A stretch of DNA of 64,000 nt from an uncultured Acidobacteriota bacterium (lineage in GTDB: Bacteria; Acidobacteriota; Thermoanaerobaculia; Multivoradales; UBA5704). Position numbers and translations under genes: made by a program. Positions 6,571-46,136 of this stretch are shown one piece after another. Under the pieces are notes generated by a model. The model was not told where the DNA came from. It saw only the letters and a program-made list of their open reading frames with translations, and did not search any database. Location: positions 2,304,001 to 2,368,000 of the forward strand of contig OY969474.1 of the NCBI GenBank assembly GCA_963700145.1, given 5' to 3'. Position 1 is the first letter of the stretch. Each line of letters starts with the position of its first letter.

Positions 6571-7007
6571 CAGCCGCCCTCCTGGACCGGCACCTGCGTC
6601 GGCGTGCGCTTGGGGATGGTGATGCGCAGCACGCCTTGCTGGAACTGGGCGGAGATCTTCTCGGCGTCGAGCGGCGCCCCGAGGTCGAAGCTGCGGCGGA
6701 AGGGGCCGTAGCTGCGCTCCATGCGCAGGAAGTTGCGGTTCTCGCCGAGCGGCGGCCGGCGGCCGGAGAGCTCCAGCCGCCGGTCGTGGACCGCGAGCTC
6801 GATGTCCTCGCGCTGGATCCCCGGCAGCTCGGCGTAGAGGAGGTAGGCGCTCTCGGTCTCGAGCACGTCGACGGGGGGGCTCCAGGTGCCCGGCGCCCCC
6901 CCCTGCGCGTCGTCGTACTCGGTGGCCAGGAGCGCCTGCTCGAGCAGGCTGTTGACCCGCTCCTGAATGCGGGAGAGTTCCTCTAAATAGATTTTCTTCA
7001 GCGCCAT
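6570..7007 (-). CDS. Small heat-shock protein (Hsp20/alpha-crystallin)
   Basis: WSPPVDVLE, AELPG, ERSYGPFRRSF and GVLRITIPK motifs. Confidence 0.93.
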   Translation of the reverse strand: MALKKIYLEELSRIQERVNSLLEQALLATEYDDAQGGAPGTWSPPVDVLETESAYLLYAELPGIQREDIELAVHDRRLELSGRRPPLGENRNFLRMERSYGPFRRSFDLGAPLDAEKISAQFQQGVLRITIPKRTPTQVPVQEGG

Positions 7008-7130
7008 TGCCTACGGCTCACCGTTATCAGACTCCTCGAAGCACTGATCCCATCTCCCTCCACTCCCTCGTTCCCTCGCCCCCCGCACGGGGGGCAAGGG
7101 ACGCCACCACCCTCTCTTCGTCCATCTTTG

Positions 7131-9056
<1,926 letters not shown>

Positions 9057-12637: not shown

Positions 12638-13405
12638 ATGCGCCGTCTGATCGACCTCGTCGCGCGGCTGCGCGCGCCCGACGGCTGCCCCTGGGACCGC
12701 GAGCAGGGCGCCGCCGACCTGCGCGCCTACCTGCTCGAGGAGGCGCACGAGGCCGCGGCCGCCATCGACGGCGGCGACTGGGGCGAGCTGGCGGGCGAGC
12801 TCGGCGACCTCCTCTTCCAGATCGCCTTCCTCGTCCGCCTCGCCGAAGAGCGCGGCGCCTTCGATCTCGAGAAGGTCGTCGCCGGCATCGAGGCCAAGAT
12901 GGTCGCCCGCCACCCGCACGTCTTCGGCGGCGAGACCCTCGCCGACGCCCGCGCCGTGCGCGAGGCCTGGGAGCGGCGCAAGCTCCGCGAGCCCGGACGC
13001 GAGTCCCTCCTCGCCGGCGTGCCGCCGTCCTTGCCCGCCCTCCTCGCCGCCTACCGCTTGACGCAGAAAGCCGCCGGCGTCGGCTTCGACTGGCCGGAGG
13101 CGCAAGCGGTGCTGGCGAAGGTCGACGAAGAGGTCGCGGAGCTCCGCGAAGCGCTCGCGGACGGCAAGCGCGAGGACGCGCGCGAGAAAGTCACCGAGGA
13201 GATCGGCGACCTCCTCTTCACCGTCGCCAACCTGGCGCGCAAGCTCGACGTCGACCCCGAGGCCGCGCTCGCCCGCGCCAACCGCAAGTTCCGCCGCCGC
13301 TTCGAGCAGATCGAGCGCCGCCTCGCCGAGCAGGGCCGCACCGCCGACGAAGCCAGCCTCGCCGAGATGGACGCCCTCTGGGACGAAGCGAAGCGCGAAC
13401 CCTAG
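12638..13405 (+). CDS. mazG: Nucleoside triphosphate pyrophosphohydrolase MazG
   Basis: LRAPDGCPWDREQ, ELGDLLFQ, RHPHVFG, GFDW, EEIGDLLF and KFRRRF motifs. Confidence 0.96.
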   Translation: MRRLIDLVARLRAPDGCPWDREQGAADLRAYLLEEAHEAAAAIDGGDWGELAGELGDLLFQIAFLVRLAEERGAFDLEKVVAGIEAKMVARHPHVFGGETLADARAVREAWERRKLREPGRESLLAGVPPSLPALLAAYRLTQKAAGVGFDWPEAQAVLAKVDEEVAELREALADGKREDAREKVTEEIGDLLFTVANLARKLDVDPEAALARANRKFRRRFEQIERRLAEQGRTADEASLAEMDALWDEAKREP

Positions 13406-14103
13406 CGCCCGGCGCTCGCCGCCGCGGAACTCTCCGCCAGCGCCGCGCGCACCAGCGGCAACACGTTCTCCGCCACCCGCCGGTGCCCCTCCGCGTTCGG
13501 GTGGATCCCGTCCCCCAGGTTCAGCTCCGCCTCCCCGCCCACCCCTTCGAGCAGAAACGGCACCAGCGGCACCCCCAGCTCCCGCGCCACCCGCGGATAG
13601 ATCCCCTCGAACCCCGCCGCATACTCCGGCCCGTAATTCGGCGGGATCCTCATCCCCAGCAACACCACCCGAGCCCCCGCCCCCTTCGCCCGCCGCACGA
13701 TGTCCTCCAGATTCCCCTCAGTCGACTCCAGCGAAAGCCCCCGCAACCCGTCATTCGCCCCCAGCCCCACCACCACCACATCCGGCTTCTGCCGCAACAC
13801 CCACTCCAACCGCCGCACCCCCCCCGCCGACGTGTCCCCGCTAACCCCCGCATTCACCACCCGCACAGGAATCCCCTCCTCCACCAACCGCTCCCGAACC
13901 AAGGCAGGAAACGCCTGCTCCTCCGCCAACCCCAAGCCCGCGGTAAGGCTGTCGCCCAAGAAGACGACTAGCGGTCCGCTCGCCTCCTCTGCCGGTGCGG
14001 AGGTCTGCGCCGGAGCAGTTTCAGGTAGAGGAGCGACTTCCTCCCGCGCCGGCGCGCGGCAGGCGACGACCAGTAGCGCCAGCAGAAGCGCTCTCTTCTT
14101 CAT
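13402..14103 (-). CDS. tesA: GDSL/SGNH arylesterase (TesA-like), lipoprotein
   Basis: ATG at 14103 (MKKRALLLALLVVAC). Motifs GDSLTAG, NAGVSGDT, GANDGLRG, DGIHPN; divergent from ybbAP as in E. coli. Confidence 0.9.
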   Translation of the reverse strand: MKKRALLLALLVVACRAPAREEVAPLPETAPAQTSAPAEEASGPLVVFLGDSLTAGLGLAEEQAFPALVRERLVEEGIPVRVVNAGVSGDTSAGGVRRLEWVLRQKPDVVVVGLGANDGLRGLSLESTEGNLEDIVRRAKGAGARVVLLGMRIPPNYGPEYAAGFEGIYPRVARELGVPLVPFLLEGVGGEAELNLGDGIHPNAEGHRRVAENVLPLVRAALAESSAAASAGR

Positions 14104-14134
14104 CCGACGGATTCTAGTGGCGCGGCTTCCCCCG

Positions 14135-14164
14135 CCCAGATCCTTCGCTTCGCTCAGGATGACA
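14135..14164 (-). repeat. REP-like arm TGTCATCCTGAGCGAAGCGAAGGATCTGGG (copy 1)
   Basis: Differs by one base from 17821-17850 (+) and is related to both arms at 26234-26395. Confidence 0.85.
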
Positions 14165-14233
14165 AGGTGGGGGGTTCCGGCATGGCGCAGGGTTGCGGGC
14201 ACGGCGCAGGCTTTTGCATCCGGGCGGGGGGGA

Positions 14234-14396
14234 GCCCTCCGGCGTGCGCTCCCCGGAGGGACCTCTGAGCGAGCGCCGGGCAACTCCCCATGCAGTCCAC
14301 CACCGACCCCGGCGCAAAGCGAAGCGGAGGCGCGCGCCTCCCTCCGCACTCCACAAAGCGCGCGCCGTTCCCGCAGGGGAGCGCACGCCGGAGGGC
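14234..14396 (+). repeat. Structured ~160-nt element, copy A (21-bp perfect terminal inverted repeat)
   Basis: GCCCTCCGGCGTGCGCTCCCC (14234-14254) pairs with 14376-14396. The core aligns with the reverse complement of 17920-18024. Confidence 0.8.
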
Positions 14397-14498
14397 GGGG
14401 CGGGGGCGGGGGTCTTTCTTTCCCCTGAGGTAAGCTCTGCCGCGCTGCGGCGTACCACAAGCATGCGCGCCGCCCGCCGTTTCCCATCTCCAGCTCCC

Positions 14499-15260
14499 AT
14501 GTCGATCCCCCGCATCGAGCTAAGAGCCCTAACCAAACGCCTCCCCTCCGGCGGCCGCGACCTAACAATCCTCGACCGCATCGACCTATCCATCGCCCCC
14601 GGCGAATTCGTCGCCATCCTCGGCCCTTCAGGCAGCGGCAAATCCACCCTCCTCGCCCTCATGGCCGGCCTAGACCGCCCCACCAGCGGCGAAGTCCACA
14701 TCGACGGCACCCCCATCCACACCCTCTCCGAAGACCAGCTAGCCCTCCTCCGCCGCGAGCACATCGGCTTCGTCTTCCAGAGCTTCCAGCTCCTCGGCAA
14801 CCTCACCGCCCGCGAAAACGTCCTCCTGCCGCTCGAGCTCCTCGCCCGCCCCGACGCCCGCGCCCGCGTCGACGAGCTCCTCGCCGCCGTCGGCCTCAGC
14901 GAGCGCGGCCACCACTACCCGAGCCAGCTCTCCGGCGGCGAGCAGCAGCGCGTCGCCCTCGCCCGCGCCTTCGCCGCGCGGCCGCCCATCCTCCTCGCCG
15001 ACGAGCCCACCGGCAACCTCGACGGCGCCACCGGCCGCCGCGTCCTCGAACAGCTCGTCGAGTTGCGCCGCGCCGGCGGCGCCACCCTCGTCCTCGTCAC
15101 CCACGACCCGGCCGTCGCCGCCCTCGCCTCGCGCCTCGTCCACCTGCGCGACGGCCGCATCGAGCGCGAGGAGACCGCGACACCGTCGCGCGCCGCAGCG
15201 CGCGCCGGGGATAGCGCCGCCGTGCGCGCCGAGGACCCCGCCGCCGAGGCCGTGCGGTGA
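14499..15260 (+). CDS. ybbA: ABC transporter ATP-binding protein (YbbA-like)
   Basis: GPSGSGKST, LSGGEQQRVALARA, LLADEPTGNLD and VTHD motifs. Confidence 0.92.
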   Translation: MSIPRIELRALTKRLPSGGRDLTILDRIDLSIAPGEFVAILGPSGSGKSTLLALMAGLDRPTSGEVHIDGTPIHTLSEDQLALLRREHIGFVFQSFQLLGNLTARENVLLPLELLARPDARARVDELLAAVGLSERGHHYPSQLSGGEQQRVALARAFAARPPILLADEPTGNLDGATGRRVLEQLVELRRAGGATLVLVTHDPAVAALASRLVHLRDGRIEREETATPSRAAARAGDSAAVRAEDPAAEAVR

Positions 15261-17788
15261 CCGCCGGCACCGCCTGGCGCCAGATGCTCCGCGAGTCGCG
15301 CGGCGCGCGCGGCCGGCTCGCCTTCTTCGTCGCCTGCCTGGGCGTCGGCGTGGCGGCGGTCGTCGCGGTCGCCGGGCTTTCGGCCAGCCTCGATCAGGGG
15401 ATCCGCAGCGAGGCGCGCCAGCTCCTCGCCGCCGACCTGGCGGTCGAGTCGATCCGGCCGCTGCCGCCGGCGATCGAGCGCGCGGCCGCCGCCCTCCCCG
15501 GCGCGCAGACCACGCGCGTGCGCGAGCTGGTGACCGTCGTCGCCGCGCCGCTGCGCGCCGGCGGCGCCCCCGGCCCCAGCCAGCTCGTCGAGCTCAAGGC
15601 GGTGGACGGCCACTACCCGTTCTACGGCATCCTCGAAGTCGAGCCGCGCCGGCCGCTCGCCGCGCTGCTGGCGCCCGACACCGCCGTCGCCGCCCCCGAG
15701 CTGCTGGCCAAGCTCGGCGTGCCGGTGGGCGGCACCATCCGCATCGGCGGCCGCGACTTCCGCGTTGCCGGCACGGTGCGTGCCGAGCCCGACCGGCTGA
15801 GCATCTCGCCGAGCCTCGGCCCGCGCGTCTTCCTCTCCGGCGCCGGGCTCGCGCGCGCCAACCTCCTGGGACGCGGCAGCCGCGTCGAGCACCGCCTCCT
15901 CGTCAAGCTCCCGGACGGCGAGGCACCGGGGCGGGTGGCGGTGGCTGCTGCGCAGCTCCGCCGCGCCGCCGGCGCCGCCAACGTGCGCGTCGAGACCTAC
16001 AAGGAGGCGCAGCCCAACCTGCGCGAGGCGCTCGGCGACATCGAGCGCTTCCTCGGCCTCGTCGCCCTGCTGTCGCTCTTCATCGGCGGCATCGGCGTGG
16101 CGCAGAGCGTGCGCGCCTGGCTGGCCGGGCGGCTCGACGCGATCGCGGTCTTGAAGTGCCTCGGCATGCGGCCGCGCGAGGTGCTCGGGCTCTACCTCGG
16201 CCAGACGGTGCTGCTTGGCCTCGCCGGCAGCGTGGCCGGGATCGTCGCCGGCGCCGCGGTGCAGCTGGCGCTGCCGCCGCTCTTCCCCGACCTGATCCCG
16301 GCCGAGCTGATCCGCCCCTGGCAGCCGCTGGCGCTGCTGCGCGGGCTGGGGCTGGGGGTCGGCGTCGCCGTCCTCTTCAGCCTGCTGCCGCTGGCCGACG
16401 TGCTGCGCGTGCCGCCGGCGCGCGTCCTGCGCCGCGACGCCGAGCCGCTGCCGCGCACCCGGTGGCTGGCGGCGGCGACGCTCGCCGCCCTGGTCGCCGG
16501 CGTGCTGGGGATGGCGGCGGCGCAGTCGGGCTCGTGGGAGCTGGGCGCGCGCTTCACCGGCGGCCTGGCGGTCGCGGCGGGGCTCCTCTGGCTCGGCGCC
16601 TTCGCCGTCACCCGCGGCGTCGCGCGGCTGCCGCGCGAGCGCGGCGGCCTCGCGGTGCGCCACGGACTGGCCGCGCTCGGCCGGCCGGGGGCGGCGACGG
16701 TCGGGGCGATCGTCGCCCTCGGGCTCGGCGTCCTGGTGGTGCTCGGGATGTGGCTCGTCGAGCGGCGCCTGAGCGAGGAGCTGGCCGCCGACCTCCCGGC
16801 CGGCGCGCCGAGCGCCTTCCTGATCGACGTCCAGCCCGACCAGTGGCCGGGGGTGCGGGCGATCCTCCAGCGCGAGGGGGCCGAGCACATCGACTCGGTG
16901 CCGGTGGTGACGGCGCGCCTGCTGGCGGTCAACGGCCGCAGCGTCGAGCAGATCGCGCGCGGCGACCGCGAGCGGCGCTGGGCGCTGACCCGCGAGCAGC
17001 GGCTGACCTATCTGCGCGAGCTGCCGGACGACAACAAGTTGGTGGCCGGCGCCCTCTGGCGCGACCCGCGGCGCGCCGAGGTGAGTGTGGAGCAGGACTT
17101 TGCGCGCGACCTGGGGGTCGGGCTCGGCGGGACGCTCGGCTTCGACATCCAGGGGGTGCCGCTGGAGCTCGTGGTGACGAGCCTGCGGACGGTGGACTGG
17201 CGGAACTTCCGGATCAATTTCTTCCTGGTCGCCGAGCCGGGGGTGCTGGAGACAGCGCCGCAGATGCGGCTGGCCGCGGCCGAGCTGCCGCGCGGGCGCG
17301 AGCAGCGGGTGCAGGACCTGATCGCGGCGCGCTACCCGAACGTGACGCTGATCCGGGTGCGGGAGGTGCTGGAGAAGGTGATGGCGGTGCTGGAGCGGAT
17401 CGGGCTGGGGATCCGGTTCCTCGGCGGGTTCACGGTGCTGGCGGGGATCGCGATTCTGGCCGGCGCGGTGGCGGCGGGGGCGGCGCGGCGGGGGCGGGAG
17501 GTGGCGCTGCTGAAGACGCTGGGGATGACGCGGCGCGGGGTGGCGGCGGCGTATGCGGTGGAGTACGCGCTGATCGGGTTGGTGGCAGGGGTGATCGGGG
17601 CGGGGGGTGGGGCGCTGCTGGCCTGGCGGGTGTTGACGGAAGGCTTCGAGATGAGCTGGCGGTTCCAGCCGGCGGCGGTAGGGGCGGCTGTGGCGGGGAC
17701 GGCGCTGCTGACGGTGTTGGCTGGGCTCGGAGCTAGCTGGCGGGCGCTGGAGCGGCGGCCTATCGAAGTGCTGCGCAGCGACTCGTAG
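15257..17788 (+). CDS. ybbP: ABC transporter permease (YbbP/FtsX-like)
   Basis: VELKAVDGHYPFYG, FLIDVQPDQ, REQRLTY and VDWRNFRINFF motifs; two FtsX-type TM blocks. Confidence 0.9.
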   Translation: MTAGTAWRQMLRESRGARGRLAFFVACLGVGVAAVVAVAGLSASLDQGIRSEARQLLAADLAVESIRPLPPAIERAAAALPGAQTTRVRELVTVVAAPLRAGGAPGPSQLVELKAVDGHYPFYGILEVEPRRPLAALLAPDTAVAAPELLAKLGVPVGGTIRIGGRDFRVAGTVRAEPDRLSISPSLGPRVFLSGAGLARANLLGRGSRVEHRLLVKLPDGEAPGRVAVAAAQLRRAAGAANVRVETYKEAQPNLREALGDIERFLGLVALLSLFIGGIGVAQSVRAWLAGRLDAIAVLKCLGMRPREVLGLYLGQTVLLGLAGSVAGIVAGAAVQLALPPLFPDLIPAELIRPWQPLALLRGLGLGVGVAVLFSLLPLADVLRVPPARVLRRDAEPLPRTRWLAAATLAALVAGVLGMAAAQSGSWELGARFTGGLAVAAGLLWLGAFAVTRGVARLPRERGGLAVRHGLAALGRPGAATVGAIVALGLGVLVVLGMWLVERRLSEELAADLPAGAPSAFLIDVQPDQWPGVRAILQREGAEHIDSVPVVTARLLAVNGRSVEQIARGDRERRWALTREQRLTYLRELPDDNKLVAGALWRDPRRAEVSVEQDFARDLGVGLGGTLGFDIQGVPLELVVTSLRTVDWRNFRINFFLVAEPGVLETAPQMRLAAAELPRGREQRVQDLIAARYPNVTLIRVREVLEKVMAVLERIGLGIRFLGGFTVLAGIAILAGAVAAGAARRGREVALLKTLGMTRRGVAAAYAVEYALIGLVAGVIGAGGGALLAWRVLTEGFEMSWRFQPAAVGAAVAGTALLTVLAGLGASWRALERRPIEVLRSDS

Positions 17789-17820
17789 TGCCCGGCCTAC
17801 GCCGGGTTCAGCCTTCAGCA

Positions 17821-17850
17821 TGTCATCCTGAGCGCAGCGAAGGATCTGGG
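17821..17850 (+). repeat. REP-like arm TGTCATCCTGAGCGCAGCGAAGGATCTGGG (copy 2)
   Basis: Matches the reverse complement of 14135-14164. Confidence 0.85.
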
Positions 17851-17891
17851 GGCAGGGGCCTTCGCGGTCGGGGCCACGCGGCCGGGGGGCC

Positions 17892-18052
17892 GCCGTTCGC
17901 GGGGTGCCGCTCCCGGGAACCGGCGCGCGCTTTTGGGAATGCCGGGGGTGGGCGCGCGCCTGCGCTTCGCTGCGCGCGGGATCGTTCGCGGACTGCTTAT
18001 GTCTTGCCGGCGCTTGCGAAGAGCTTCCCGGGAGCGGCACCCCGCGAACGGC
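17892..18052 (-). repeat. Structured ~160-nt element, copy B (28-bp perfect terminal inverted repeat)
   Basis: GCCGTTCGCGGGGTGCCGCTCCCGGGAA (17892-17919) pairs with 18025-18052. The core is homologous to copy A and overlaps the last codons of yfhO. Confidence 0.8.
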
Positions 18053-20369
18053 TTCGTAACGCCAGGATGGTCGCTGCGAACGACCCTGTGAAGAAGAAGG
18101 CCCAGCCGACCAGCCAACCGATCGGGCGGTAGTCGAGAAGCACGCGGTGTTGGCCTGCGGGGACGGCGAAGGCTAGAAAAGCTCCGTTGGCGCGGAGGAG
18201 GGAAAGGGGGTTGCCGTCTAGCGTGGCGCGCCAGCCGCGGGCTTGGCTGACGCTTGAGACCACTACCCCACCCAGCCCTTCCACGGTCAGCTCGAAGCCG
18301 TTCGGTCGCACGCGGAGAATCCGTACCGCGCCGCGTTGCGCGCCTGCGCGTGGCGTTCCCTCGACCGCAGCTGTCGCAGCGAAGTCCGGGTTGGCGCGAG
18401 CGCGGGCCAGGGCTTCCTGTTGGCCTCCTACCTGCTCGACATTCGCCGGCATGAAGAAGAGCGGCAGGGCTTCCGGGTTCTCCCACACTCGCCCGCCTTG
18501 GTGGTTGAAGACGGAACGCCAGGGAAGTGGGACGCGGGCACGGTGGCGGGTCAGGAGGTAGCGGACGGAGAGGTAGTTCTCGAGTGCCGGGTCGCGGCGG
18601 GGGCCGTGGAGGACTAGGCGGCCTACTTTGTGGTGGGGGCGTAGGCGGGTGCCGATGAGGGCGCTGGGGGCGGCGGGGGACATGGGGTCGTGGGCACGGG
18701 CGTCCCAGATGCCGTCTAGGGAGGCGAGGTTGGGCATCAGGTCGCGGCCGTCGGCGAGGACGCGGTGGGGCGGGCCCTCGCGGGCGCGATCGGCGAGCCA
18801 GGCGACGACGGGGGGCGGGGAGAGGTCGAAGCGCGGGTCGAGGGCGGGGTGGAAGCGGACGCCTAGGAGGAAGAGCTCGACGGCGAGCGCGGCGAGCGCC
18901 ACCTTCGGGAAGGCGGGGCGGAGGCGGGGGACGAGCAGCGCGGCGAGGCAGGCCGCCGCGCCGGCGAGGGCGGCCAGCCACCAGGCGCGGGTCCACGGCG
19001 AGTCTCCGGGCGGCGGCAGCGCGGCGACCGCGATGCCGAGGAGGGCGAAGACGAGGGCGCCCGAGATCACGCCGCCGCGGCGACGGGTAAGAGCCTCGAG
19101 GCTGAGGCCGGCCGCGATGGCCACGGCCAGCACCCAGAGGAGGCGCAGGCGGCCGTGGGCGCCGTGGCCTAGGAGCGGCAACGTCTCCATCACTTGGAAG
19201 AACGGCGGCACGCGCAAGGCGGCGGCGAGGGCCGCGCCCCCGGCGAGGAGGATCGCCAGCACTCGGCCGCGCAGCACGACCGCGCCCGCGATCGCCACCG
19301 CTAGCGCGGCCAAGCCCGCCCAGACGGTGCACAGCTCGTTGAAATTACTTCGGCCCGGCCCTTGCCACGTCCTCTCCCGCGGGCTGCCGTGAACGAGCGG
19401 CTGAAGAACAGGTAGGTGGGTCGCGGGTGACGGCGGGCCGGGCTTGACGATGTTCGGGTTGCGGTGCACCGCTTCCCAGCGCTCGCTCTCCGCCAGCGTC
19501 TCGACGAACGGCAGGAGCGCCGGCGCGGACAGCGCGAAGGTGAGGGCCGCCGCCGCGGCGAGGCGGGCGAGGAAGCGGAGCCGCCCTGCCTCTTTCGCGA
19601 GCAGCAGCGCGACCGTCACTGCCGCGCTCGCCAGCGCGGCGTTGGCGAGGCTCTCAGGGTGCCCGGCGAGGGTCGCCGCGGTGGCGCAGGCGACCAGACC
19701 GGCGAAGCCGCCGCGCTCGCCGCGCCGGAGGAGGACCACACCCAGCAGCACGCCCGGCACCCACGCCGCGACCGCGCCGAGTGGGTGGTAGGCCCAGGCT
19801 ACGGCGTAGCTCGACAGCGCGAAGGCGATGGCGCCGAAGGCGGCGCCGACGCCGCCGGCTCCGAGCCGCAGCAGCAACGCATGCGTGAGGAGGAGCCCGA
19901 CGAGCATCTGCCAGGCGGCGGTCACTGTCAGCGCCGCGAGCGCCGGCCGCGGCAGGGCCAGCAGGTGGAGCGGCGCGAACGGCGCCGACTGGGCGTTGCC
20001 GAGGAGCGGCTGCCCGGTCCCCAGCTCGTGCGCCCAGAGCGGCGCCTCGCCGGCCAGCAGGCGCGCCCGCACTAGGCTGCGGAACGGGAGCATCTGGAGC
20101 GGAACGTCGGAGAGGGTCGGGTTGCCCGGCCGGACCGGCTCCTCCAGCGTCTCCTTCCACGGCAGGTGGAGGTAGGCGATGTCCGTCGCCGCCTGGCTCG
20201 CCGGGGTGGCGAGCGGCACGGCGTAGAAGGCGAAGGCCAGGAGGAGATACCCGCCGGCGCCCCGCCAAGACACCTCCGGCCGCCACCACCGCGCCAGCGC
20301 GCCGAGGAGCAGCCCGCCGGCCAGGAACAGGAGGACGTCGATGCCGAAGACTTTACAGCAGGCCCACAA
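17997..20369 (-). CDS. YfhO-family membrane protein (GT-C-like glycosyltransferase)
   Basis: PLWAHELGTGQPLLGNAQSAPFAP, LAGHPE, many TM segments, C-terminal GWRATLDG...RANGAFLAFAVPAGQHRVLLDYRP. Start codon is uncertain. Confidence 0.85.
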   Translation of the reverse strand: MWACCKVFGIDVLLFLAGGLLLGALARWWRPEVSWRGAGGYLLLAFAFYAVPLATPASQAATDIAYLHLPWKETLEEPVRPGNPTLSDVPLQMLPFRSLVRARLLAGEAPLWAHELGTGQPLLGNAQSAPFAPLHLLALPRPALAALTVTAAWQMLVGLLLTHALLLRLGAGGVGAAFGAIAFALSSYAVAWAYHPLGAVAAWVPGVLLGVVLLRRGERGGFAGLVACATAATLAGHPESLANAALASAAVTVALLLAKEAGRLRFLARLAAAAALTFALSAPALLPFVETLAESERWEAVHRNPNIVKPGPPSPATHLPVLQPLVHGSPRERTWQGPGRSNFNELCTVWAGLAALAVAIAGAVVLRGRVLAILLAGGAALAAALRVPPFFQVMETLPLLGHGAHGRLRLLWVLAVAIAAGLSLEALTRRRGGVISGALVFALLGIAVAALPPPGDSPWTRAWWLAALAGAAACLAALLVPRLRPAFPKVALAALAVELFLLGVRFHPALDPRFDLSPPPVVAWLADRAREGPPHRVLADGRDLMPNLASLDGIWDARAHDPMSPAAPSALIGTRLRPHHKVGRLVLHGPRRDPALENYLSVRYLLTRHRARVPLPWRSVFNHQGGRVWENPEALPLFFMPANVEQVGGQQEALARARANPDFAATAAVEGTPRAGAQRGAVRILRVRPNGFELTVEGLGGVVVSSVSQARGWRATLDGNPLSLLRANGAFLAFAVPAGQHRVLLDYRPIGWLVGWAFFFTGSFAATILALRSRSRGAAPGKLFASAGKT

Positions 20370-26395: not shown

Positions 26396-27937
26396 GCGAA
26401 CCGCTTCTTCCTTCTCGCCGGCACTGTCGCCTGCCTCGCCTGCGCCCGCGAGCGCGGAACGCTGGTGCCGGCCACCGACGAGCTCGTGGTGGCGCTGGAG
26501 TCGGCGCCCGTTAGCCTCGACCCGCGGGTCGCCACCGACCAGTCGTCGGCGCGCGTCTTCGCGGCCCTGCTCAACGGCCTCGCCACCAAGGACGAACGCG
26601 GTAACCCCTTGCCCGACCTCGCCACCTGGGAGGTGCTCGACGGCGGGCGGCGCTACCGCTTCCATCTGCGGCCCGGGGTCCGCTTCCACGACGGCCGGCG
26701 CCTCACCTCGGCCGACGTCGTCTGGACCTTCCGCACCATGCTCGACGGCACCATCGTCACCTCGAAGCGCGGCGCCTTCCCGCAGGTCCAGAGGGTCGAG
26801 GCGGCGGGACCGGCGGCGGTCGACTTCCACCTCTCCGAGCCCTTCGGGGCCTTTCCGCTCGAGCTGACGACGTCGATGGGCATCGTGCCGGCGGGCACGA
26901 CGCCGGAGGCGATGAACCGGCGGCCCATCGGCACGGGCCCCTTCCGCGTCGTCGCGCGCACCCCCGAGCGCGTCGTGCTGGAGCGCTTCGACGGCCACTT
27001 CGCCGGACCGCCGAAGCTCGACCGGATCGTCTTCAAGGTCGTGCCCGACGCCACGGTGCGGGCGCTCGAGCTGCTCAAGGGCTCGGTGCAGCTCGTGGTC
27101 AACGACCTGCCGCCGGACTTGGTGCCACGCTTCCGCGCCGACCGGCGCTACCGGGTGATCGAGGGCCCGGGGGCGACTTACTCCTACCTCGGCATCAACC
27201 TCGTGGACCCCCTGCTGCGCGACGTGCGGGTGCGGCGGGCGCTGGCGCTGGCGATCGACCGCGAGCGGCTGGTCGATTCGCTCTGGCGCGGGCTCGGCCG
27301 GGTCACCGAGACAATGATCCCGCACGCGCACTGGGCGCACCACGAAGGCCTGCCGCAGGTGCCCCACGACCCCGCGGCCGCCCGGCGCCTGCTCGACGCC
27401 GCCGGATATCCCGATCCCGACGGCCCGGCGCCGCGCTTCACGCTCACCTACAAGACCTCGACCAACGAGCCCTACATCCTCCAGGGGCAGGCGATCCAGG
27501 CGATGCTGGCGGAGGTGGGGATCGACCTGCGCGTGCGCTCCTACGAGTTCGCCACCTTCTACGAGGACGTGCGCAAGGGGAACTTCCAGATCTTCGCGCT
27601 GCTCCGCCTCGGCGTCCTCGACCCGCACGTCTACCGCCTCGTCCTCCACTCCGCGAGCCTCCCCCCCGCCGGCCAGAACCGCGGCCGCTACATCAACGCC
27701 CGCTTCGACCAGCTCATCGACCAGGGCGCCCGCCTCACCGCCCCAGCGGAGCGTCGCCCCTACTACCTCGCCGCCCAGGAGATCCTCGCCCGCGACCTCC
27801 CCTACATCAGCCTCTACATCCGCACCAACGTCGCCGTCATGCCCGCCGAGCTGAAGGGCTACCGGACGTACCTCAACGGGGAGCTGCTGAGCCTGAAGGA
27901 CGTATGGTGGGAGCGGCCCGGGCCGCGTCCTCTATAG
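26390..27937 (+). CDS. ABC peptide/nickel substrate-binding lipoprotein (family 5)
   Basis: MTANRFFLLAGTVACLAC lipoprotein-like N-terminus; SLDP, FHLRPGVRFHDG, PIGTGPF and DVRVRRALALAIDR motifs. Confidence 0.92.
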   Translation: MTANRFFLLAGTVACLACARERGTLVPATDELVVALESAPVSLDPRVATDQSSARVFAALLNGLATKDERGNPLPDLATWEVLDGGRRYRFHLRPGVRFHDGRRLTSADVVWTFRTMLDGTIVTSKRGAFPQVQRVEAAGPAAVDFHLSEPFGAFPLELTTSMGIVPAGTTPEAMNRRPIGTGPFRVVARTPERVVLERFDGHFAGPPKLDRIVFKVVPDATVRALELLKGSVQLVVNDLPPDLVPRFRADRRYRVIEGPGATYSYLGINLVDPLLRDVRVRRALALAIDRERLVDSLWRGLGRVTETMIPHAHWAHHEGLPQVPHDPAAARRLLDAAGYPDPDGPAPRFTLTYKTSTNEPYILQGQAIQAMLAEVGIDLRVRSYEFATFYEDVRKGNFQIFALLRLGVLDPHVYRLVLHSASLPPAGQNRGRYINARFDQLIDQGARLTAPAERRPYYLAAQEILARDLPYISLYIRTNVAVMPAELKGYRTYLNGELLSLKDVWWERPGPRPL

Positions 27938-30997: not shown

Positions 30998-31494
30998 TGT
31001 CCCTCCTGTGGGATGCCGAGCGCCTCCGCCGGCCGGCCGGCCACCCGCTTGCGCAGGGTGACTTCGGTGCCGCCGGTCGGTCCGGGGGCGTAGTCGATCG
31101 CGTCCATGAAGCTCTTCATGTAGAAGATGCCGCGGCCGGTGGGCCGCAGCAGGTTTTCGGGAGCGAGAGGGCTGTCGAGATGGTCGGAATCGAACCCTTC
31201 CCCCTCGTCGCGCACGTGCACCACCAGCTCCTGCCCCTCAACACCCCAATCCACCTCCACTTGCTTCTCGGGGTCCTGCCGGTTGCCGTGCTTGATGGCG
31301 TTGGCCACCGCCTCGCGCACCGCCAGCCCCACCCAGTGGCGCGTGTCGCCGTCAACCCCCATCCCCTCCAGCGCGTCCTCGAGCACCACCTGCACGAGCT
31401 CGATGTTCTCGAACCGGCTGCCGATCGCGAGGTGGACGCGGGGCTCGTCGGACTCGTCGGGCACGGGGGAGCGACCTCGCGCGGAGTCTAGCAT
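30994..31494 (-). CDS. Anti-sigma factor Ser kinase (RsbW-like)
   Basis: EAVANAIKHGN, DEGEGF and GRGIFYM motifs. The true start may be the GTG near 31465. Confidence 0.92.
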   Translation of the reverse strand: MLDSARGRSPVPDESDEPRVHLAIGSRFENIELVQVVLEDALEGMGVDGDTRHWVGLAVREAVANAIKHGNRQDPEKQVEVDWGVEGQELVVHVRDEGEGFDSDHLDSPLAPENLLRPTGRGIFYMKSFMDAIDYAPGPTGGTEVTLRKRVAGRPAEALGIPQEGQ

Positions 31495-41817: not shown

Positions 41818-44040
41818 TGAGCGAGCCCCGCCAGCCCCGCCTGCCCGGGGCGCCCGGACCCGAGCCCGACACCGCTCTCCTCGAAGGGGTCCTCGAGCGG
41901 ATCGTCTTCGCCAACCCCGAGAGCGCCTGGAGCGTCGTGCGGCTGGCGGTGCCGGACGAGCGCGAGCTGGTCACCGCGGTCGGCAACCTCCTCGCCGTGC
42001 AGCCCGGCGAAAGCCTGCGGCTGACCGGCCGCTGGGAGCAGGACGCCCGCCACGGCCGGCAGTTCCGCGTCAGCTCCTACCAGACCGTCACTCCCGCGAC
42101 CGTCGTCGGGATCGAGCGCTACCTCGGCTCGGGGCTGGTGCGCGGCATCGGCAAGGGGCTCGCCAAGCGCCTGGTCGCGCGCTTCGGCATGGAAACCCTG
42201 GCGGTCATCGAGACCAGCCCCGAGCGGCTTGCCGAGGTGCCGGGGATCGGCCGGAAGCGCAGCGGCGAGATCCGGCGCGCCTTCCGCGAGCAGCGCGGCA
42301 TCCAGGAGCTGATGGTGTTCCTGCAGTCGCACGGCGTCGCCACCGGCCTGGCGGTCAAGATCCACAAGCGCTACGGCGAGGAGGCGATGGCGGTGGTGCG
42401 CGAGAGCCCCTTCCGCCTGGCGGTCGAGGTCTTCGGCATCGGCTTCCGCAGCGCCGACCGGATCGCCGCGGCGCTGGGGCTGCCGAAGGACGCGCCGCAG
42501 CGGGTCGAGGCCGCCCTCCTCCACCTCCTGGGCGAGGCGGCCGAGCGCGGCCACTGCTTCCTGCCGCGGGCGTCTCTCCTGGAGGAAGCCGTGACGCTCC
42601 TCGGCGTCGAGCCGGGGCGGGTCGAGGCGGGGCTCGCGACGCTCGCCGCCGCCGGCGAGGCGATCGTCGAGCCGCTGGCGGACGGCACGGCGGCGGTCTA
42701 TCTCCCGACCCTCTACACCGCCGAGCGCGAGATCGCCGAGCGCGTCGCCGCCCTCGCCGCCACGCCGGCGCCGCCCCTGGCGCTCGACGTCGAGCGCGCC
42801 CTCGCCTGGCTCGAGCAGCGCGAGAAGGTCGCCCTCGCCCCCGAGCAGCGCGAGGCGATTCGGCTCGGGCTGACGCGCAAGGTGCTGGTCGTGACCGGCG
42901 GCCCGGGGACCGGCAAGACGACGCTGGTGCGCGGCATCGTCGAGGTGCTGGAGCGCAAGGGGCTGCGCGTCCTCCTCGCCGCCCCCACCGGCCGCGCCGC
43001 CAAGCGGCTGGCCGAGGCGACCGGCCACGAGGCCGCCACCCTCCACCGCCTGCTCGAGTGGAACGCCCGGAGCCGCGGCTTCGAGCGCCACCGCGAGCGC
43101 CCGCTCGACGGCGACCTCGTCGATCGTCGACGAGGCTTCGATGCTCGACGCGCCGCTCGCCGCCCACCTCCTGCGCGCGCTGCCGGACGCCGCGCGGCTG
43201 GTTCTCGTGGGCGACGTCGATCAGCTCCCGTCGGTCGGCCCCGGCCGGGTGCTCGCCGACCTCATCCGCTCGGGCGCCGTCGAGGTGGCGCGCCTGCAGA
43301 CGATCTTCCGCCAGGCGGAGCGCAGCCTCATCGTCACCAACGCCCACCGCGTGCGGCAGGGCGAGATGCCGCTCCTCGAACCGCTCGCCGGCGACCGCGG
43401 CGAGGCCGACTTCTTCTTCGTCGAGAAGGAGACGCCGGAGGAGGTGCTGGAGGCCCTACGCGAGCTCCTCGTCCGCCGCATCCCGCAGCGCTTCGGCTTC
43501 GATCCGGTCGAGGAGGTGCAGGTGCTGACGCCGATGAACCGCGGCCTGCTCGGCACGGCGAGCCTGAACGGCGTGCTGCGCGAGCTGCTCAACCCGGCGC
43601 GCGGCGAGGCGGCGGGGCCGTCGCGCGGCGGCTTCCGCGCCGGCGACAAGGTGATGCAGGTGCGGAACAACTACGACCTGGAGGTCTTCAACGGCGACCT
43701 CGGGCGGGTGGCGGCGATCGACGAGGCCGAGCAGCGCGTGGTGGTGAGCTTCGACGGGCGGCGGGTCGCCTACGACCCCGCCGCCCTCGACGAGCTGGCG
43801 CTGGCCTACGCCTGCTCGATCCACAAGTCGCAGGGGAGCGAGTACCCCTGCGTCGTCGTGCCGCTGCACACCCAGCACTACGTCATGCTGCAGCGGAACC
43901 TCCTCTACACCGCCCTGACCCGCGCCCGCCGGCTGGCCGTCCTGGTCGGCGAGAAGCGGGCGTTGCGCGTCGCCGTCGGCAACGCCCGCACCCGCGCGCG
44001 GCACACCCGGCTCGCCGAGCGCGCCGCGGCCGCGGCTGCG
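41817..44040 (+). CDS. recD2: ATP-dependent RecD2-like helicase (frameshift near 43122; 3' end lost in poly-G block)
   Basis: [27 protein letters not shown], then IVDEASM after a one-base shift, [22 protein letters not shown] and RNLLYTA. Confidence 0.92.
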
Positions 44041-44420
44041 GGGGCGGGGGGGGGCGGGGGGGGGGGGGGCGGGGGGCGAGAGGGGGGCGGGGGGGGGGGA
44101 GGGGAGGCGGGGGGAGGAGGGGGGGGAGGGGAGGGGAGACGGGGAGGGGCGAGAGGAGAGGGGGGCGGGGGGGGAGCGCGGCGGGGGGGGGCGGGCGCGC
44201 GGGGCGCGGAGGGGAGGAGGGGGGGGGGGGGGGGGGGGGGGGGCGCGGGAGGCGGCGGGCGGGCGCGGCAGGGGGGGGGAGGGGGGGAGGGGGCGCGCAG
44301 GGCGGGGGAGCGGGCGGGGTCAGCGGGGGCGGGGGGAGGCGAGGAGGAAGGCGGGGGGGGCGGAGGCGCGGCGGGGGAGGGGGGCGCTCGGCGGGAGGCG
44401 GAGAGGCGAGAGCGCGGGGG
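44038..44420. other. Extreme poly-G low-complexity block, probable sequencing/consensus artefact
   Basis: About 380 bp of almost only G with sparse A/C, including a run of about 25 G. It replaces the stop codons of both convergent genes. Confidence 0.7.
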
Positions 44421-46136
44421 GGCGGGCGGCGCAGCGCGCGCGGCCGCAGCGCCTCCCGGAGCAGGGGCTCGGCGCGGTCGTTTTCGCCCCGGTCGCTGTA
44501 GACGCGGCCGAGCTCCACGAGGGTCACGGCGACGTCCGGGTGCTCCTCGCCGAGCAGCCGGCGCGCTGGCGAGCGCCTCCTCCAGCAGCGGCGCCGCGGC
44601 GGCGTAGTCCCCCTTCGTCCGAGCAGCGCGCCGAGGTCGTTGAGGCTCTGGGCCACCCGCGCGTGCTCGGGACGGCGATCCGGCGGCCGAGGGAAGCGCC
44701 CGCTCGAGGAGCGGCTGCGCGCGGTCGTGCCCCAGCCGCTGGTACACCCGGCCGATCACCGTCAGCACTCGGCCTGGAGCTCGGGCTGGTCGGCGAGCTC
44801 GGTGCGGACGCGCTCGGCGCCGGCGTCGAGCACGCCGCGCACGGTGGGCTCCCGCGTCTCGCTGCCGAGGGATCGGCGCGGCAGGAGGTCGGCCAGGAGC
44901 TCGCTCACCTTCGCCGCCTTCCGCCTCGAGTCGCGCCCGGTCCCGCTCGGCCGGAGGCGGCGGGAGAAGCGACCAGCCGGCGAGGAGCAGGGTCACCGCG
45001 GCGGCCGTGGCCACGCCCGCCGCGTGCCGCCGCACGAACTTGGGGCGCGGTAGGCGAACGAGTCCGGCCGGGCGCCGATCGGCTGGTGGTCGAGGTAGCG
45101 CCGCACGTCGTCCGCGAGGGCAGTGACCGAGACGTAGCGATCCGCCGGACGCTTCTTGAGCGTCTGGCGACGATCGTCTCGAGGTCGCCGCGCAGCAGCC
45201 GGCGGGCGCGGGGATCGGAGACGGCTTCGGAGAGGCGCTGCGGCTCGGTGTCGACGAGCGCCCGCAGCAGCTCGGCCGGCGAGCGCTCCGCCGGCGCGGT
45301 CGGATGCCGCCCGGTGAGCAGCAGGTAGAGCAGGGGCCCAGGGCGTAGACGTCGGTGGCGGTGGTGATCGGCCCGCCGGTCACCGTCGGGAGCGGCGTAC
45401 TCGGGGGGAGGCCCGGCCGGCCTCGCGGGTGAGCGCGTCGGCGCGGGACGTGTCCGCCCGAGCAGCTTGGCGATGCCGAAGTCGAGGAGCTCACCGCGCC
45501 GGCGGTCGAGACCAGCACGTTCGAGGGCTTGATGTCCCGGTGCACGATGAGGTTGGCGTGCGCTGGGCGACGGCGGCCAGCACGTCCAGGAAGAGACGCA
45601 GGCGCGCTCGACGCTCAGCTCCCGGGCGTCGCAGTAGCGGTCGATGTGCCGCCCTCGACGTGCTCGAGCACGAGATAGGGCTGGCCGTTCGCCGACAGGC
45701 CGGCGTCGAGGAGGCGCGCGATGTGAGGATGGGCGAGCCGCGCCAGGATGCTGCCTTCGCGCCGGAAGCGCTCCGCGCTGGCCAGGCCGACCAGCTCGGC
45801 GTTGAGCAGCTTGACCGCCGCCGAGCCCTCGAAGCGGCCGTCGCTGCGCCGCGCCAGCCAGACGCGCCCATGCCGCCGGCCGATCGGCGAGACGAGGGTC
45901 CAGGCACCGACCGTCTGACCGGCAAGGGAGGCGAAGAGCGGCGGAGTCGGCCCGCCGCCTTCGAGGAAGCGCTCGCGGCCGACCGCGTTCGCCTCGTCGA
46001 GCAGCGTCTCCAGCTCGGCGGCGAGGGCGGGCTCGTCGGCGCGCAGGACGCCGAGCCACGCGGCGCGCTCGTCGCCGCTCATCTCCAGCGCCCGGTCGAG
46101 AAGCGGGCTGAGGGCCTGCCAATGGTCCCTGTTCAT
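44420..46136 (-). pseudogene. Ser/Thr protein kinase with TM and TPR repeats, multiply frameshifted
   Basis: Pieces lie in alternating frames: MNRDHWQALSPLLDRAL, VWLARRSDGRFEGSAAVK, HPHIARLLDAG, HRDIKPSNVLV, LLDFGIAKLL, TDVYALG, AQSLNDLG and LGEEHPDVA. Confidence 0.85.

Follow-up and report, generated by a model that had tools for sequence, protein, structure and literature searches.

Orientation-linked halos of strand-specific cytosine loss flank short hairpin-forming repeats in a soil Acidobacteriota genome

What strips cytosine from one DNA strand on both sides of two small repeat clusters, in genes of either direction? The locus lies in a window of 64,000 nucleotides (the whole stretch of DNA analyzed) from a soil bacterium of the Acidobacteriota, class Thermoanaerobaculia. 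A preliminary description proposed that the repeats direct localized, kataegis-like mutagenesis of single-stranded DNA. The relevant parts of the window are the following, where F1 is the larger of the repeats at each cluster.

13402-14103, minus strand: tesA-like GDSL lipase open reading frame holding the left 3'-side halo (Pfam Lipase_GDSL_2, E=1.5e-33)
13440-14130, no strand: left halo, 3' side of the minus-oriented F1 (GC skew -0.40 to -0.54; plus strand C/A-rich)
14151-14164, minus strand: left copy of the small REP/MITE-like motif TGTCATCCTGAGCG, a linked passenger and not the halo anchor
14234-14396, minus strand: left F1 copy, two 28-nt closing arms (14234-14261 and 14369-14396, 93% complementary) and a 107-nt structured core (nhmmer score 85.3)
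14430-15250, no strand: left halo, 5' side of the minus-oriented F1 (GC skew -0.38 to -0.20; plus strand C/A-rich)
14499-15260, plus strand: ybbA-like ABC ATPase gene holding the left 5'-side halo (Pfam ABC_tran)
15257-17788, plus strand: ybbP-like FtsX/MacB permease gene (Pfam FtsX, MacB_PCD), its middle serving as internal control
17050-17788: right halo, 5' side, i.e., the last ~700 nt of the ybbP-like gene (third positions C 0.24, G 0.70)
17821-17834, plus strand: right copy of the small motif TGTCATCCTGAGCG
17892-18052, plus strand: right F1 copy, 28-nt arms 100% complementary and a 105-nt core (nhmmer score 101.3)
18060-19000, no strand: right halo, 3' side of the plus-oriented F1 (GC skew up to +0.40; plus strand G-rich)
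17997-20369, minus strand: yfhO-like open reading frame, its 3' part being the right 3'-side halo and its final codons extending into F1 (Pfam YfhO)

The skew at both clusters is real and far beyond the genome's own spread. GC skew over 300 bp reaches -0.536 at 13600-13899 and -0.384 at 14500-14799 around the left cluster, and +0.444 at 17350-17649 and +0.398 at 18550-18849 around the right cluster, compared to a genome-wide standard deviation of 0.095 and 0.1 and 99.9 percentiles of -0.352 and +0.342. These values bear out the strand-specific loss of C first described at both clusters and the reversed polarity between them, and the skew decays by ~1 kb as described. Coding-strand third positions are C 0.18, G 0.68 and T 0.11 in the tesA-like gene on the minus strand (n=234), and C 0.79, G 0.12 and A 0.08 in the first 600 nt of the ybbA-like gene on the plus strand (n=200). 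At the right cluster they are C 0.24 and G 0.70 in the last 700 nt of the ybbP-like gene (plus strand, n=234), and C 0.62, G 0.23 and A 0.10 in the last 1000 nt of the yfhO-like gene (minus strand, n=334). The internal controls gave C 0.55 and G 0.43 (ybbP-like gene, nt 300-1500) and C 0.46 and G 0.46 (first 1200 nt of the yfhO-like gene). Therefore, the bias follows the DNA strand and not gene direction, as had been claimed; Pfam backs the gene names (GDSL lipase, ABC_tran, FtsX/MacB_PCD and YfhO). The smaller skew patches mentioned alongside are real at 27.6-27.9 kb (-0.31) and 31.2-31.4 kb (-0.36), with the nearest copy of either repeat family more than 9.8 kb and 13.3 kb away, respectively, but the patch at 23.3-23.9 kb is not confirmed, with a skew of 0.05 as a whole.

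The halos are anchored by two families of non-coding hairpin-forming repeats, F1 and F2. F1 is a structured palindromic repeat with 40 copies of ~160-200 nt, built from 28-38-bp arms around a structured core of ~105 nt, and F2 has 20 copies of ~200 nt. The F1 plus strand forms the more stable fold in 36 of the 40 copies (34/40 in a second folding run), and of 41 predicted pairs, 21 are supported by compensatory changes. There is no correlation between the strength of a halo and the difference in folding energy between strands (rho -0.04, p=0.83). Rfam 15 covariance models gave no matches at E<=1 on either strand of 13900-18300 in the window. Beside the 60 copies of F1 and F2 no recurring protein family or transposase was found, the elements show no similarity to IS110 or RT loci, and no autonomous partner was identified for either family. 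The motif TGTCATCCTGAGCG does sit on the C-depleted strand at both clusters (minus at 14151-14164, plus at 17821-17834), but its role as anchor was rejected: 146 copies more than 2.5 kb from F1 or F2 have an oriented flank skew of -0.005 ± 0.005, and F1 halos are independent of it (0.225 with the motif vs. 0.181 without, p=0.47).

When all 40 F1 copies are averaged by orientation, the skew is linked to orientation, with a mean of 0.201 vs. a null of 0.001 (sd 0.061). Both flanks are positive after orientation in 34 copies (null 28.7%), 30 lie above the 99th percentile of the null (z ~21) and 22 above the 99.9th; ten have an oriented skew of at most 0.1, nine of them below 0.1. A blind search for the 28 strongest double-flank skew centers returned 24 that hold F1, two with diverged F2 and two with neither. 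On the element plus strand, C in the flanking DNA has given way to G and, to a lesser degree, T over ~1 kb in both directions. Third positions move from C 0.48 and G 0.46 to C 0.20, G 0.70 and T 0.1 in either gene direction, and the main change is C to G because the genome is 71.5% GC. The profile of third-position skew peaks at 0.55 (5' side) and 0.42 (3' side) and is down to at most 0.1 by ~1-1.5 kb; the skew reaches +0.42/+0.43 in co-oriented and +0.54/+0.61 in anti-oriented genes. The halo bias hits silent sites above all, and is independent of gene direction and of TGTCATCCTGAGCG. T exceeds A at third positions of the G-rich strand (0.10-0.15 vs. 0.03-0.06; AAA/TTT ratio 0.21), and the whole-sequence AT skew at 18501-19000 has the opposite sign (+0.20). 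Replication skew is undetectable in this genome, with 250-kb bins within ±0.02. The same halos are present in four other genomes of the genus, and their presence across five assemblies and in contigs from four further runs excludes a base-calling artefact.

Orthologous sites with and without an element show that the bias accumulates in place after insertion. At 3020112 and 2884093, the genomes G000 and G004 carry the element and a skew of 0.23-0.38, while the empty G002 sites have 0.00-0.08. Together with 2875910, 3647088 and 5146305, the empty orthologous sites range from -0.01 to 0.10. An F1 copy found only in G000 (1050750) has no halo. Similarly, four diverged F2 copies have halos of 0.16-0.37 on both sides and 16 near-identical copies have little or none, although old and young F2 copies may differ in function, as subfamilies, rather than in age. 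The expectation that element-free orthologues lack the bias therefore holds at several sites and fails at others: the empty G004 site at 1644507 has 0.14/0.18, and six element-free G002 sites show the halo (1054798; 2318254, the left site of the window; 3642676; 5152145; 4624754; and 2730446, on one flank only). Between orthologous copies, element interiors differ by ~30% and flanks by ~5%, both eyeball estimates from the alignment.

The polarized substitutions are C>G and C>T on one strand, as predicted, plus G>T. On the post-insertion branch (three element sites, 456 third positions; small single-branch counts, obtained by parsimony with BLAST projection and crude ORF-based gene calling), C>G occurred 54 times (0.335 per C), C>T 15 times (0.093) and G>T five times, while G>C occurred four times (0.015) and G>A once. 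This gives 69 C>G/T vs. 5 G>C/A, with background rates of 0.081 for C>G, 0.089 for G>C and 0.005 for C>T. The bias is weaker on terminal branches, where 11 halos show C>T at 2.7-4.5x, C>G at ~2x and G>T at ~6x background, and G>C and G>A at 0.5-1.0x and 0.7-0.9x. The flux between C and G is not clearly raised (0.7-1.2x background). No deaminase-like context was seen, as trinucleotide ratios fit one factor per base. The third-position rate in halos is only 1.2-1.6x background, and the process is therefore a slow, long-lasting bias and not the kataegis-like bursts first suggested.

Collectively, the orientation-set halos point to an undescribed local process of strand-specific mutation or repair. 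From the shape of the halo and its spectrum, we tentatively favor a model in which one of the strands surrounding the folded element is re-copied again and again, at slightly less than an even chance. The folded element would repeatedly trigger a single-strand gap or excision tract in the minus strand, spreading both ways, either by blocking synthesis on the folded plus-strand template or through a strand-specific nick. The plus strand would afterwards serve as the template for re-copying the minus strand. Lesions that arise on the plus strand while it is exposed would thereby be fixed, e.g., C deamination or oxidation as C>T and C>G and G oxidation as G>T, whereas minus-strand lesions would be erased, which in this proposal is why G>C and G>A are fewer. 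In the long term, the plus strand would act as the local master and drift towards G and T. Re-copying would also require that the halos at element-free G002 sites reflect earlier loss of the element, after which the bias would have persisted. The lacking correlation with folding energy and the ten F1 copies with a skew of at most 0.1 speak against this model.

The reduced G>C, and the finding that the older branch is more biased than terminal ones, also fit a bias in fixation instead of mutation, where strand-specific gene conversion or selection favors G and T on the element plus strand, for example if heteroduplex always forms from the same strand and poorly repaired C.C mismatches escape correction. 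A single scaled coefficient of ~3 yields both the fall of G>C to 0.015 from a background of 0.089 and the approximately four-fold increase in C>G. The C-G flux of 0.7-1.2x background, the MutS genes in 5/5 genomes and the less biased terminal branches fit as well, and the divergence of ~30% in interiors against ~5% in flanks (eyeball estimates) suggests frequent conversion at the elements. However, C>T (3-18x) and G>T (6-13x) are raised against the GC pressure of the genome and beyond the coefficient that fits C>G, and at equilibrium a fixation bias should lower the rate, which is 1.2-1.6x background. As we also know of no donor strand or transfer mechanism, we consider this unlikely, though well worth keeping in mind. 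The reverse causality, that elements insert preferentially into already skewed DNA or merely mark such regions, could accommodate the same-polarity halos at the six element-free G002 sites and the 0.14/0.18 at the empty G004 site. It is nevertheless very improbable given the five empty sites at -0.01 to 0.10, the unskewed DNA around young F2 copies and the G000-only F1, and the 69 vs. 5 changes after insertion, and it offers no reason for orientation-matched polarity in 34/40 copies.

The mutagenesis originally envisaged, with a dedicated repeat-recognizing enzyme such as a REP-type nickase or a cytosine deaminase making kataegis-like bursts on single-stranded DNA, agrees with the data in orientation linkage and in a spectrum rich in C>T and C>G, but not in its motif anchor, RAYT, deaminase context or bursts. 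The proposed nuclease search did recover a small GIY-YIG open reading frame in G000 with the small motif on its flanks. However, the motif alone has no halo, RAYT/IS200 (PF01797) was found in 0/5 genomes of the genus while 6/14 control genomes matched, and a TnpB-type gene (PF07282) was likewise found in 0/5. With no recurring protein family beside the 60 copies, no trinucleotide preference and a rate of 1.2-1.6x background, such an enzyme appears improbable. Transcription could instead act through R-loops, with RNA from or through the element displacing the plus strand over the halo and exposing it to damage. R-loops are classically marked by a non-template strand rich in G, as reported for the GC skew at human promoters (PMC3787257), and the plus strand here is G-rich and the better RNA folder. 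Still, the halo is nearly symmetric up- and downstream of the element and equal for co- and anti-oriented genes, there is no Rfam family match, and a sigma-70-like promoter was not found in 13900-18300, which is a weak test. We therefore think R-loops quite improbable.

Known systems share parts of this pattern. In replication-associated skew, the leading strand is G/T-rich, usually explained by damage to whichever strand spends more time single-stranded. The halos likewise favor G over C, and T over A at third positions, on one of the strands and would allow the same explanation, but they are local (~2 kb), 5-10 times stronger and set by element orientation. Resection of a break, as in kataegis, exposes opposite strands on its two sides, whereas the same strand is affected on both sides of F1. 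The halos do show the strand coordination of kataegis and of APOBEC/AID-type mutagenesis, without TC or WRC context or a burst rate. In yeast, fragile inverted repeats raise mutation in flanking genes via long single-stranded regions and error-prone synthesis, as reported by Saini et al. (2013, PMC3681665), and a hairpin-forming repeat affects flanking genes on both sides there too. Unlike yeast repeats and kataegis, the halos are a germ-line equilibrium composition at ~1.2-1.6x background. F1 and F2 resemble REP/BIME elements and MITEs in being short, dispersed, intergenic, hairpin-forming, non-autonomous and variably present among close relatives. A REP measures 20-40 nt and is an imperfect palindrome that bears a conserved 5' tetranucleotide; F1 is longer (~160-200 nt), and unlike REP/BIME with RAYT, the genus has a RAYT gene in 0/5 genomes. 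Long inverted arms, as in MITEs, are present, while neither a target-site duplication (three filled/empty site alignments) nor a related autonomous IS was found. Our literature search turned up no description of composition halos beside REPs or MITEs. Retrons and DGRs do not match either, as RVT_1 occurs at three places in G000, none beside F1 or F2, and G003 (95% complete) has elements and halos with no RVT_1 match. Furthermore, DGR changes are adenine-specific, and the halo changes are at C and G, not A.

The closest published phenomenon is GRINS, reported in a 2021 paper: duplicated stretches of more than 500 bp and 80% identity, mostly in PKS genes, where repeat and skewed DNA are one and the same, although single-copy skewed regions are mentioned too (PMC8256042). 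GRINS (PMC8256042) and halos alike have an intense GC skew confined to a short region and most pronounced at third codon positions, and in both, functional proteins are recoded and their amino-acid use is altered; the TA skew linked to GC skew in GRINS has a counterpart at third positions of the halos. Three properties define GRINS: a length above 500 bp at a mean absolute GC skew over 0.15, the duplication, and a mean absolute TA skew, likewise over 0.15, that correlates with GC skew (PMC8256042). The F1 flanks have the length and GC skew (~600-1000 bp, 0.3-0.5) but not the duplication above 80% identity: when the regions ±500 bp from the 28 strongest centers were all compared with each other by blastn, matches were confined to the central elements of 150-280 bp and the small motif, and the flanks are unrelated host genes. 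Unlike in GRINS, halo DNA is unique host sequence, and its polarity is set by the orientation of a small hairpin element.

The halo process would add a local, element-directed strand asymmetry beside those of replication and transcription. For bacteria generally, it is possible, though we lean slightly towards doubt, that hairpin repeats are widespread strand-specific entry points for gap or excision resynthesis, making one strand the local master, rewriting the silent sites and some amino acids of their neighbors for ~1 kb each side as a third source of asymmetry, and perhaps underlying GRINS-type skews. This offers a testable cause for the unexplained skews of GRINS. The halos would be a natural footprint of chromosome sites that are recurrently single-stranded or re-copied, and they distort tests of codon bias, horizontal transfer and selection as well as skew-based origin prediction. 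For the organism, small non-coding repeats can thus reshape the codon usage of housekeeping neighbors and, slightly, their protein sequence.

The two intergenic clusters around which the preliminary description had claimed a strand-specific, orientation-dependent skew each contain two distinct repeats, a small REP-like motif, TGTCATCCTGAGCG, and a larger palindromic element, F1. They lie among four genes whose names are backed by Pfam matches.

13402-14103, minus: tesA-like GDSL lipase gene
14151-14164, minus: small motif TGTCATCCTGAGCG, left cluster
14234-14396, minus: F1, left copy; 28-nt arms, 93% complementary, around 107 nt
14499-15260, plus: ybbA-like ABC ATPase gene, divergent from the tesA-like gene
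15257-17788, plus: ybbP-like FtsX/MacB permease gene, after the ybbA-like gene
17821-17834, plus: small motif TGTCATCCTGAGCG, right cluster
17892-18052, plus: F1, right copy; 28-nt arms, 100% complementary, around 105 nt
17997-20369, minus: yfhO-like gene, convergent to the ybbP-like gene

The 3' arm of the right F1 copy contains the end of the yfhO-like ORF (17997-18052), and its last residues are therefore element-encoded. A promoter and terminator scan of the cluster region returned no promoter-like sites and five terminator-like sites, none of them informative.

GC skew in 300-bp windows was -0.536 and -0.384 in the flanks of the left cluster and +0.444 and +0.398 in those of the right cluster, beyond the 0.1 and 99.9 percentiles of the genome (-0.352 and +0.342; sd 0.095). 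Third codon positions were shifted in the same regions.

Third-position composition in the window (coding strand)
tesA (minus): C 0.18, G 0.68, T 0.11
ybbA, first 600 nt (plus): C 0.79, G 0.12, A 0.08
ybbP, last 700 nt (plus): C 0.24, G 0.70
yfhO, last 1000 nt (minus): C 0.62, G 0.23, A 0.10
Control, middle of ybbP: C 0.55, G 0.43
Control, first 1200 nt of yfhO: C 0.46, G 0.46

These compositions, read against the controls, show that the bias tracks the DNA strand and not the gene, and that its sign flips between the two inverted clusters. The claimed skew is thus borne out, both here and genome-wide. Short skew patches at 27600-27900 (-0.31), 31200-31400 (-0.36) and 6950-7280 (-0.27) lie more than 7-13 kb from the nearest F1 or F2 (a second repeat family). 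A G-rich degenerate tandem repeat at 44026-44440 (units of ~24-137 bp; GC 0.88, GC skew +0.56, AT skew +0.53) is unrelated to either family.

The genome holding the window (G000) is a single contig of 5.46 Mb with 71.5% GC. A blind scan of it for points with like skew on both flanks gave 60 centres, and the 28 strongest had a common central repeat of 150-280 bp, always in one orientation once flipped by the sign of the skew. F1 was found in 24 of these 28 centres, F2 in two and neither in two. Averaged over the 40 full F1 copies detected by nhmmer (one partial hit, score 27, was left out), oriented skew was 0.201 against a null of 0.001 (sd 0.061, z ~21), so the orientation-linked skew persists when all copies are pooled. 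Both flanks were positive in 34/40 copies (null 28.7%), 30/40 exceeded the 99th percentile of the null and 22/40 the 99.9th, and four had a negative mean. F2 has 20 full copies, with 8 partial or weak rows left out; 16 are near-identical with little or no halo, and four diverged copies carry 0.16-0.37 skew on both sides. Strong double-flank halos at ~1826205 and ~3205210 of the G000 contig (0.29 and -0.27) contain neither F1 nor F2, and a third anchor type may lie behind them.

The preliminary description had proposed the REP-like motif as the anchor. The 204 copies of TGTCATCCTGAGCG (at most one mismatch) average only +0.05 and -0.03, and those lying >2.5 kb away from F1 and F2 (146 copies) average -0.005 ± 0.005. 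Halos around F1 are of similar strength with the motif nearby (0.225, 18 copies) and without it (0.181, 22 copies; p=0.47). F1 and F2, and not the motif, are therefore the anchor. The depleted strand does carry the motif, as had been stated, a consequence of its position on the plus strand of F1, seen in 17 of 20 nearby copies.

Copies of the small motif occur mostly as MITE-like inverted pairs 66-164 bp apart, and those in the window lie at 14151, 17821, 26234 and 26382. Elsewhere on the contig (2172646-2173123), a pair 464 bp apart encloses an ORF with a GIY-YIG domain (PF01541, 45.9 bits) that could be an autonomous partner. In G004, another genome of the genus, an IS110-family transposase gene (PF01548) lies inside an inverted pair (locus L314, contig C74, 1384-2707) and G000 has the pair alone (5148242/5148319), which suggests that the pair is an IS110 target.

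The shape of the halos was resolved with gene calls from a crude procedure based on ORFs and GC3, which yielded 2614 ORFs covering 69% of the genome.

Third-position composition on the element plus strand
Beyond ~1.5-2 kb: C3 ~0.48, G3 0.46, T3 0.03
5' side, 300-500 bp: C3 0.20-0.22, G3 0.67-0.70, T3 0.05-0.11
3' side, 200-400 bp: C3 0.24-0.26, G3 0.57-0.60, T3 0.10-0.12

The third-position skew has its maximum at 0.55 upstream (5') of the element and at 0.42 downstream (3') of it, and drops to 0.1 or less by ~1-1.5 kb. The shift is of like size in either gene direction (to +0.42/+0.43 in co-oriented and +0.54/+0.61 in anti-oriented genes); non-coding DNA is also shifted (+0.21 to +0.27) and first codon positions move slightly. 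A single factor for each base accounts for the trinucleotide ratios in the halos, and no sequence context was detected beyond it. Halo strength did not correlate with folding-energy difference (rho -0.04), and its relation to the other two measures tested, folding energy and nhmmer score, was weak or absent (rho -0.29 and 0.28, p=0.07-0.08). An artefact of base calling, which the preliminary description had named among the results that would overturn it, is ruled out: reading frames remain open, the changes are mostly silent, other assemblies have halos, and contigs from four further runs in four studies, from relatives and not the same strain, cover halos at 90-99% identity.

Orthologous sites with and without the element were compared by projecting four genomes of the genus (identities ~94, 92, 86 and 82%) on ten G000 regions (~188 kb, 18 element sites), leaving out BLAST pieces below 400 bp or below identity floors of 85/82/74/72%, and sites marked n/a. 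At sites still occupied in G004, halos are as strong there as in G000 (24 flanks, 0.30 vs 0.30). In G002, the most distant genome, the element is absent at 15 of 16 scorable sites, and element-free flanks average 0.11 vs 0.25 in G000 (27 flanks). Two sites are clear cases.

Flank skews at two orthologous sites
3020112: G000 0.37/0.26; G004 0.37/0.26; G003 (empty) 0.16/0.00; G002 (empty) 0.00/0.02
2884093: G000 0.35/0.23; G004 0.38/0.25; G003 (empty) 0.26/0.07; G002 (empty) 0.03/0.08

While the bias is absent in G002 at these two sites, six element-free G002 sites retain a halo of the same polarity, including the window's left site (0.27/0.26), which counts against a simple reading. The window's right F1 is likewise absent in G004 and the halo is nonetheless kept; between the ybbP and yfhO orthologues (locus L025, contig C75) it is replaced by 1896 bp of unskewed DNA with ORF-like stretches and a short F1-arm-like remnant at its end. 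Halos therefore persist once the element has been lost or, in some cases, were there before it. One F1 copy, at 1050750, occurs in G000 only and has no halo.

Substitutions were polarised on the shared branch of three sites filled in G000 and G004 and empty in G003 and G002 (456 halo and 8563 background third positions, element-oriented), and, for 11 halos, on the terminal branches leading to G000 and G004 (third positions C 395, G 1781).

Polarised third-position changes, shared branch (rate per ancestral base in brackets)
C>G: halo 54 (0.335); background 0.081
C>T: halo 15 (0.093); background 0.005
C>A: halo 1
G>T: halo 5 (0.018); background 0.001
G>C: halo 4 (0.015); background 0.089
G>A: halo 1 (0.004); background 0.009

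Polarised third-position changes, terminal branches (G000/G004)
C>T: halo 0.068/0.054; background 0.015/0.020
C>G: halo 0.043/0.036; background 0.020
G>T: halo 0.013/0.019; background 0.002/0.003
G>C: halo 0.020/0.011; background 0.020/0.024
G>A: halo 0.012/0.012; background 0.014/0.018

C>G and C>T are in excess on the element plus strand after insertion. Summed over all changes, the third-position rate is 0.058 and 0.052 in halos vs 0.037 and 0.044 in background, a ratio of 1.2-1.6, which is not hypermutation and does not agree with the kataegis-like bursts that had been proposed. At the two sites of element loss in G004 the numbers are too small to carry weight (9 changes from C vs 5 from G on the G000 branch, 6 vs 9 on the G004 branch).

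The process envisaged in the preliminary description therefore holds in being strand-specific, orientation-linked and aimed at C, but it is anchored at F1/F2, and a RAYT-type nuclease and mutational bursts are unsupported. Most likely, we infer, the minus strand suffers a single-stranded gap or an excision tract that is re-copied from the plus strand, which fits the halo shape. The tract would open at the element and extend both ways, and the minus strand would be re-synthesised on the plus-strand template. Damage on the exposed template would raise C>T, C>G and G>T, and discarding of minus-strand lesions would lower G>C and G>A. Cytosine deamination or oxidation and guanine oxidation on an exposed template strand would be expected to produce just the three raised classes. 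The trigger might be the folded plus strand blocking synthesis, in which case a special enzyme would be unnecessary, or a strand-specific nick.

Double-strand-break resection would expose opposite strands on the two sides, whereas halos affect the same strand on both, and transcription would act on one side and depend on gene direction, whereas halos are two-sided and indifferent to it. Replication skew is also a poor fit: adjacent copies that point in opposite directions show halos of equal strength, and there is no global skew in this genome. Bins of 250 kb stay within ~±0.02, mostly ±0.007, which gives no basis for placing origin or terminus; a 27 vs 17 split of copies by replication direction was set aside as origin placement is unreliable. 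The main rival is a fixation bias, by strand-specific conversion or selection, which accounts for the drop in G>C and for a bias that is strongest on the older branch, but not easily for the large rise of the AT-ward changes C>T and G>T or for the raised total rate.

Regarding candidate enzymes, PF01797 (RAYT/IS200) was found in 0/5 genomes of the genus, which excludes a REP/RAYT system and leaves the suggested RAYT without a match, and PF07282 in 0/5, which excludes a TnpB-type partner. IS110 (PF01548, 3/5) and reverse transcriptase (PF00078, 4/5) genes exist in the genus, none of them adjoining elements. The suggested search for GIY-YIG nucleases and translesion polymerases was positive, as GIY-YIG, Y-family polymerase, MutS and UDG occur in 5/5, an ordinary repair set. 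No recurrent protein family and no orientation preference relative to neighbouring genes was detected beside the 60 F1 and F2 copies.

The closest published phenomenon is GRINS, in which strong GC skew, coupled to TA skew, affects third positions and recodes functional proteins by a mechanism given as not known (PMC8256042). The halos resemble GRINS in their intense third-position GC skew, but in GRINS the skewed DNA is itself duplicated by definition, whereas that of the halos is single-copy sequence next to a small repeat and so falls outside that definition. Among titles and abstract openings we could find no description of repeat-anchored halos in bacteria, and thus no published counterpart for those of F1/F2, whose mechanism is inferred; skewed regions present in single copy may be covered by the supplementary tables on GRINS.

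The original observation is confirmed and extends beyond the window. F1 is present in all four other genomes of the genus by DNA search, and absent from 26 genomes of other genera barring one marginal hit (E=9e-4). A pattern scan of all species genomes gave 54 stretches, of which the 25 confirmed by nhmmer (score >50) are all in records labelled Thermoanaerobaculia, with a mean oriented profile of +0.20 to +0.29 on both sides. F1 has no match in Rfam. Its long closing stem varies in the middle from copy to copy, where changes in one arm are matched in the other, and its interior holds a conserved centre and a 9-bp GC hairpin whose loop is of two types. Compensatory changes occur at 21 of 41 predicted pairs (21 copies) and one-sided changes are almost absent. 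The plus strand is the more stable fold in 36/40 copies, or 34/40 in a second computation, both with RNA energy parameters; the strand enriched in G and T is therefore the one that folds. Filled sites, when aligned with empty ones, carry an insert of ~200 bp and no obvious target duplication. Between G000 and G004, the interior of a same-site F1 differs by ~30% and its flanks by ~5% (eyeball estimates from the alignment), and a second site has four matched double changes in the arms. This fast interior change and the matched arm changes at orthologous copies indicate that the elements themselves are sites of fast turnover or conversion.
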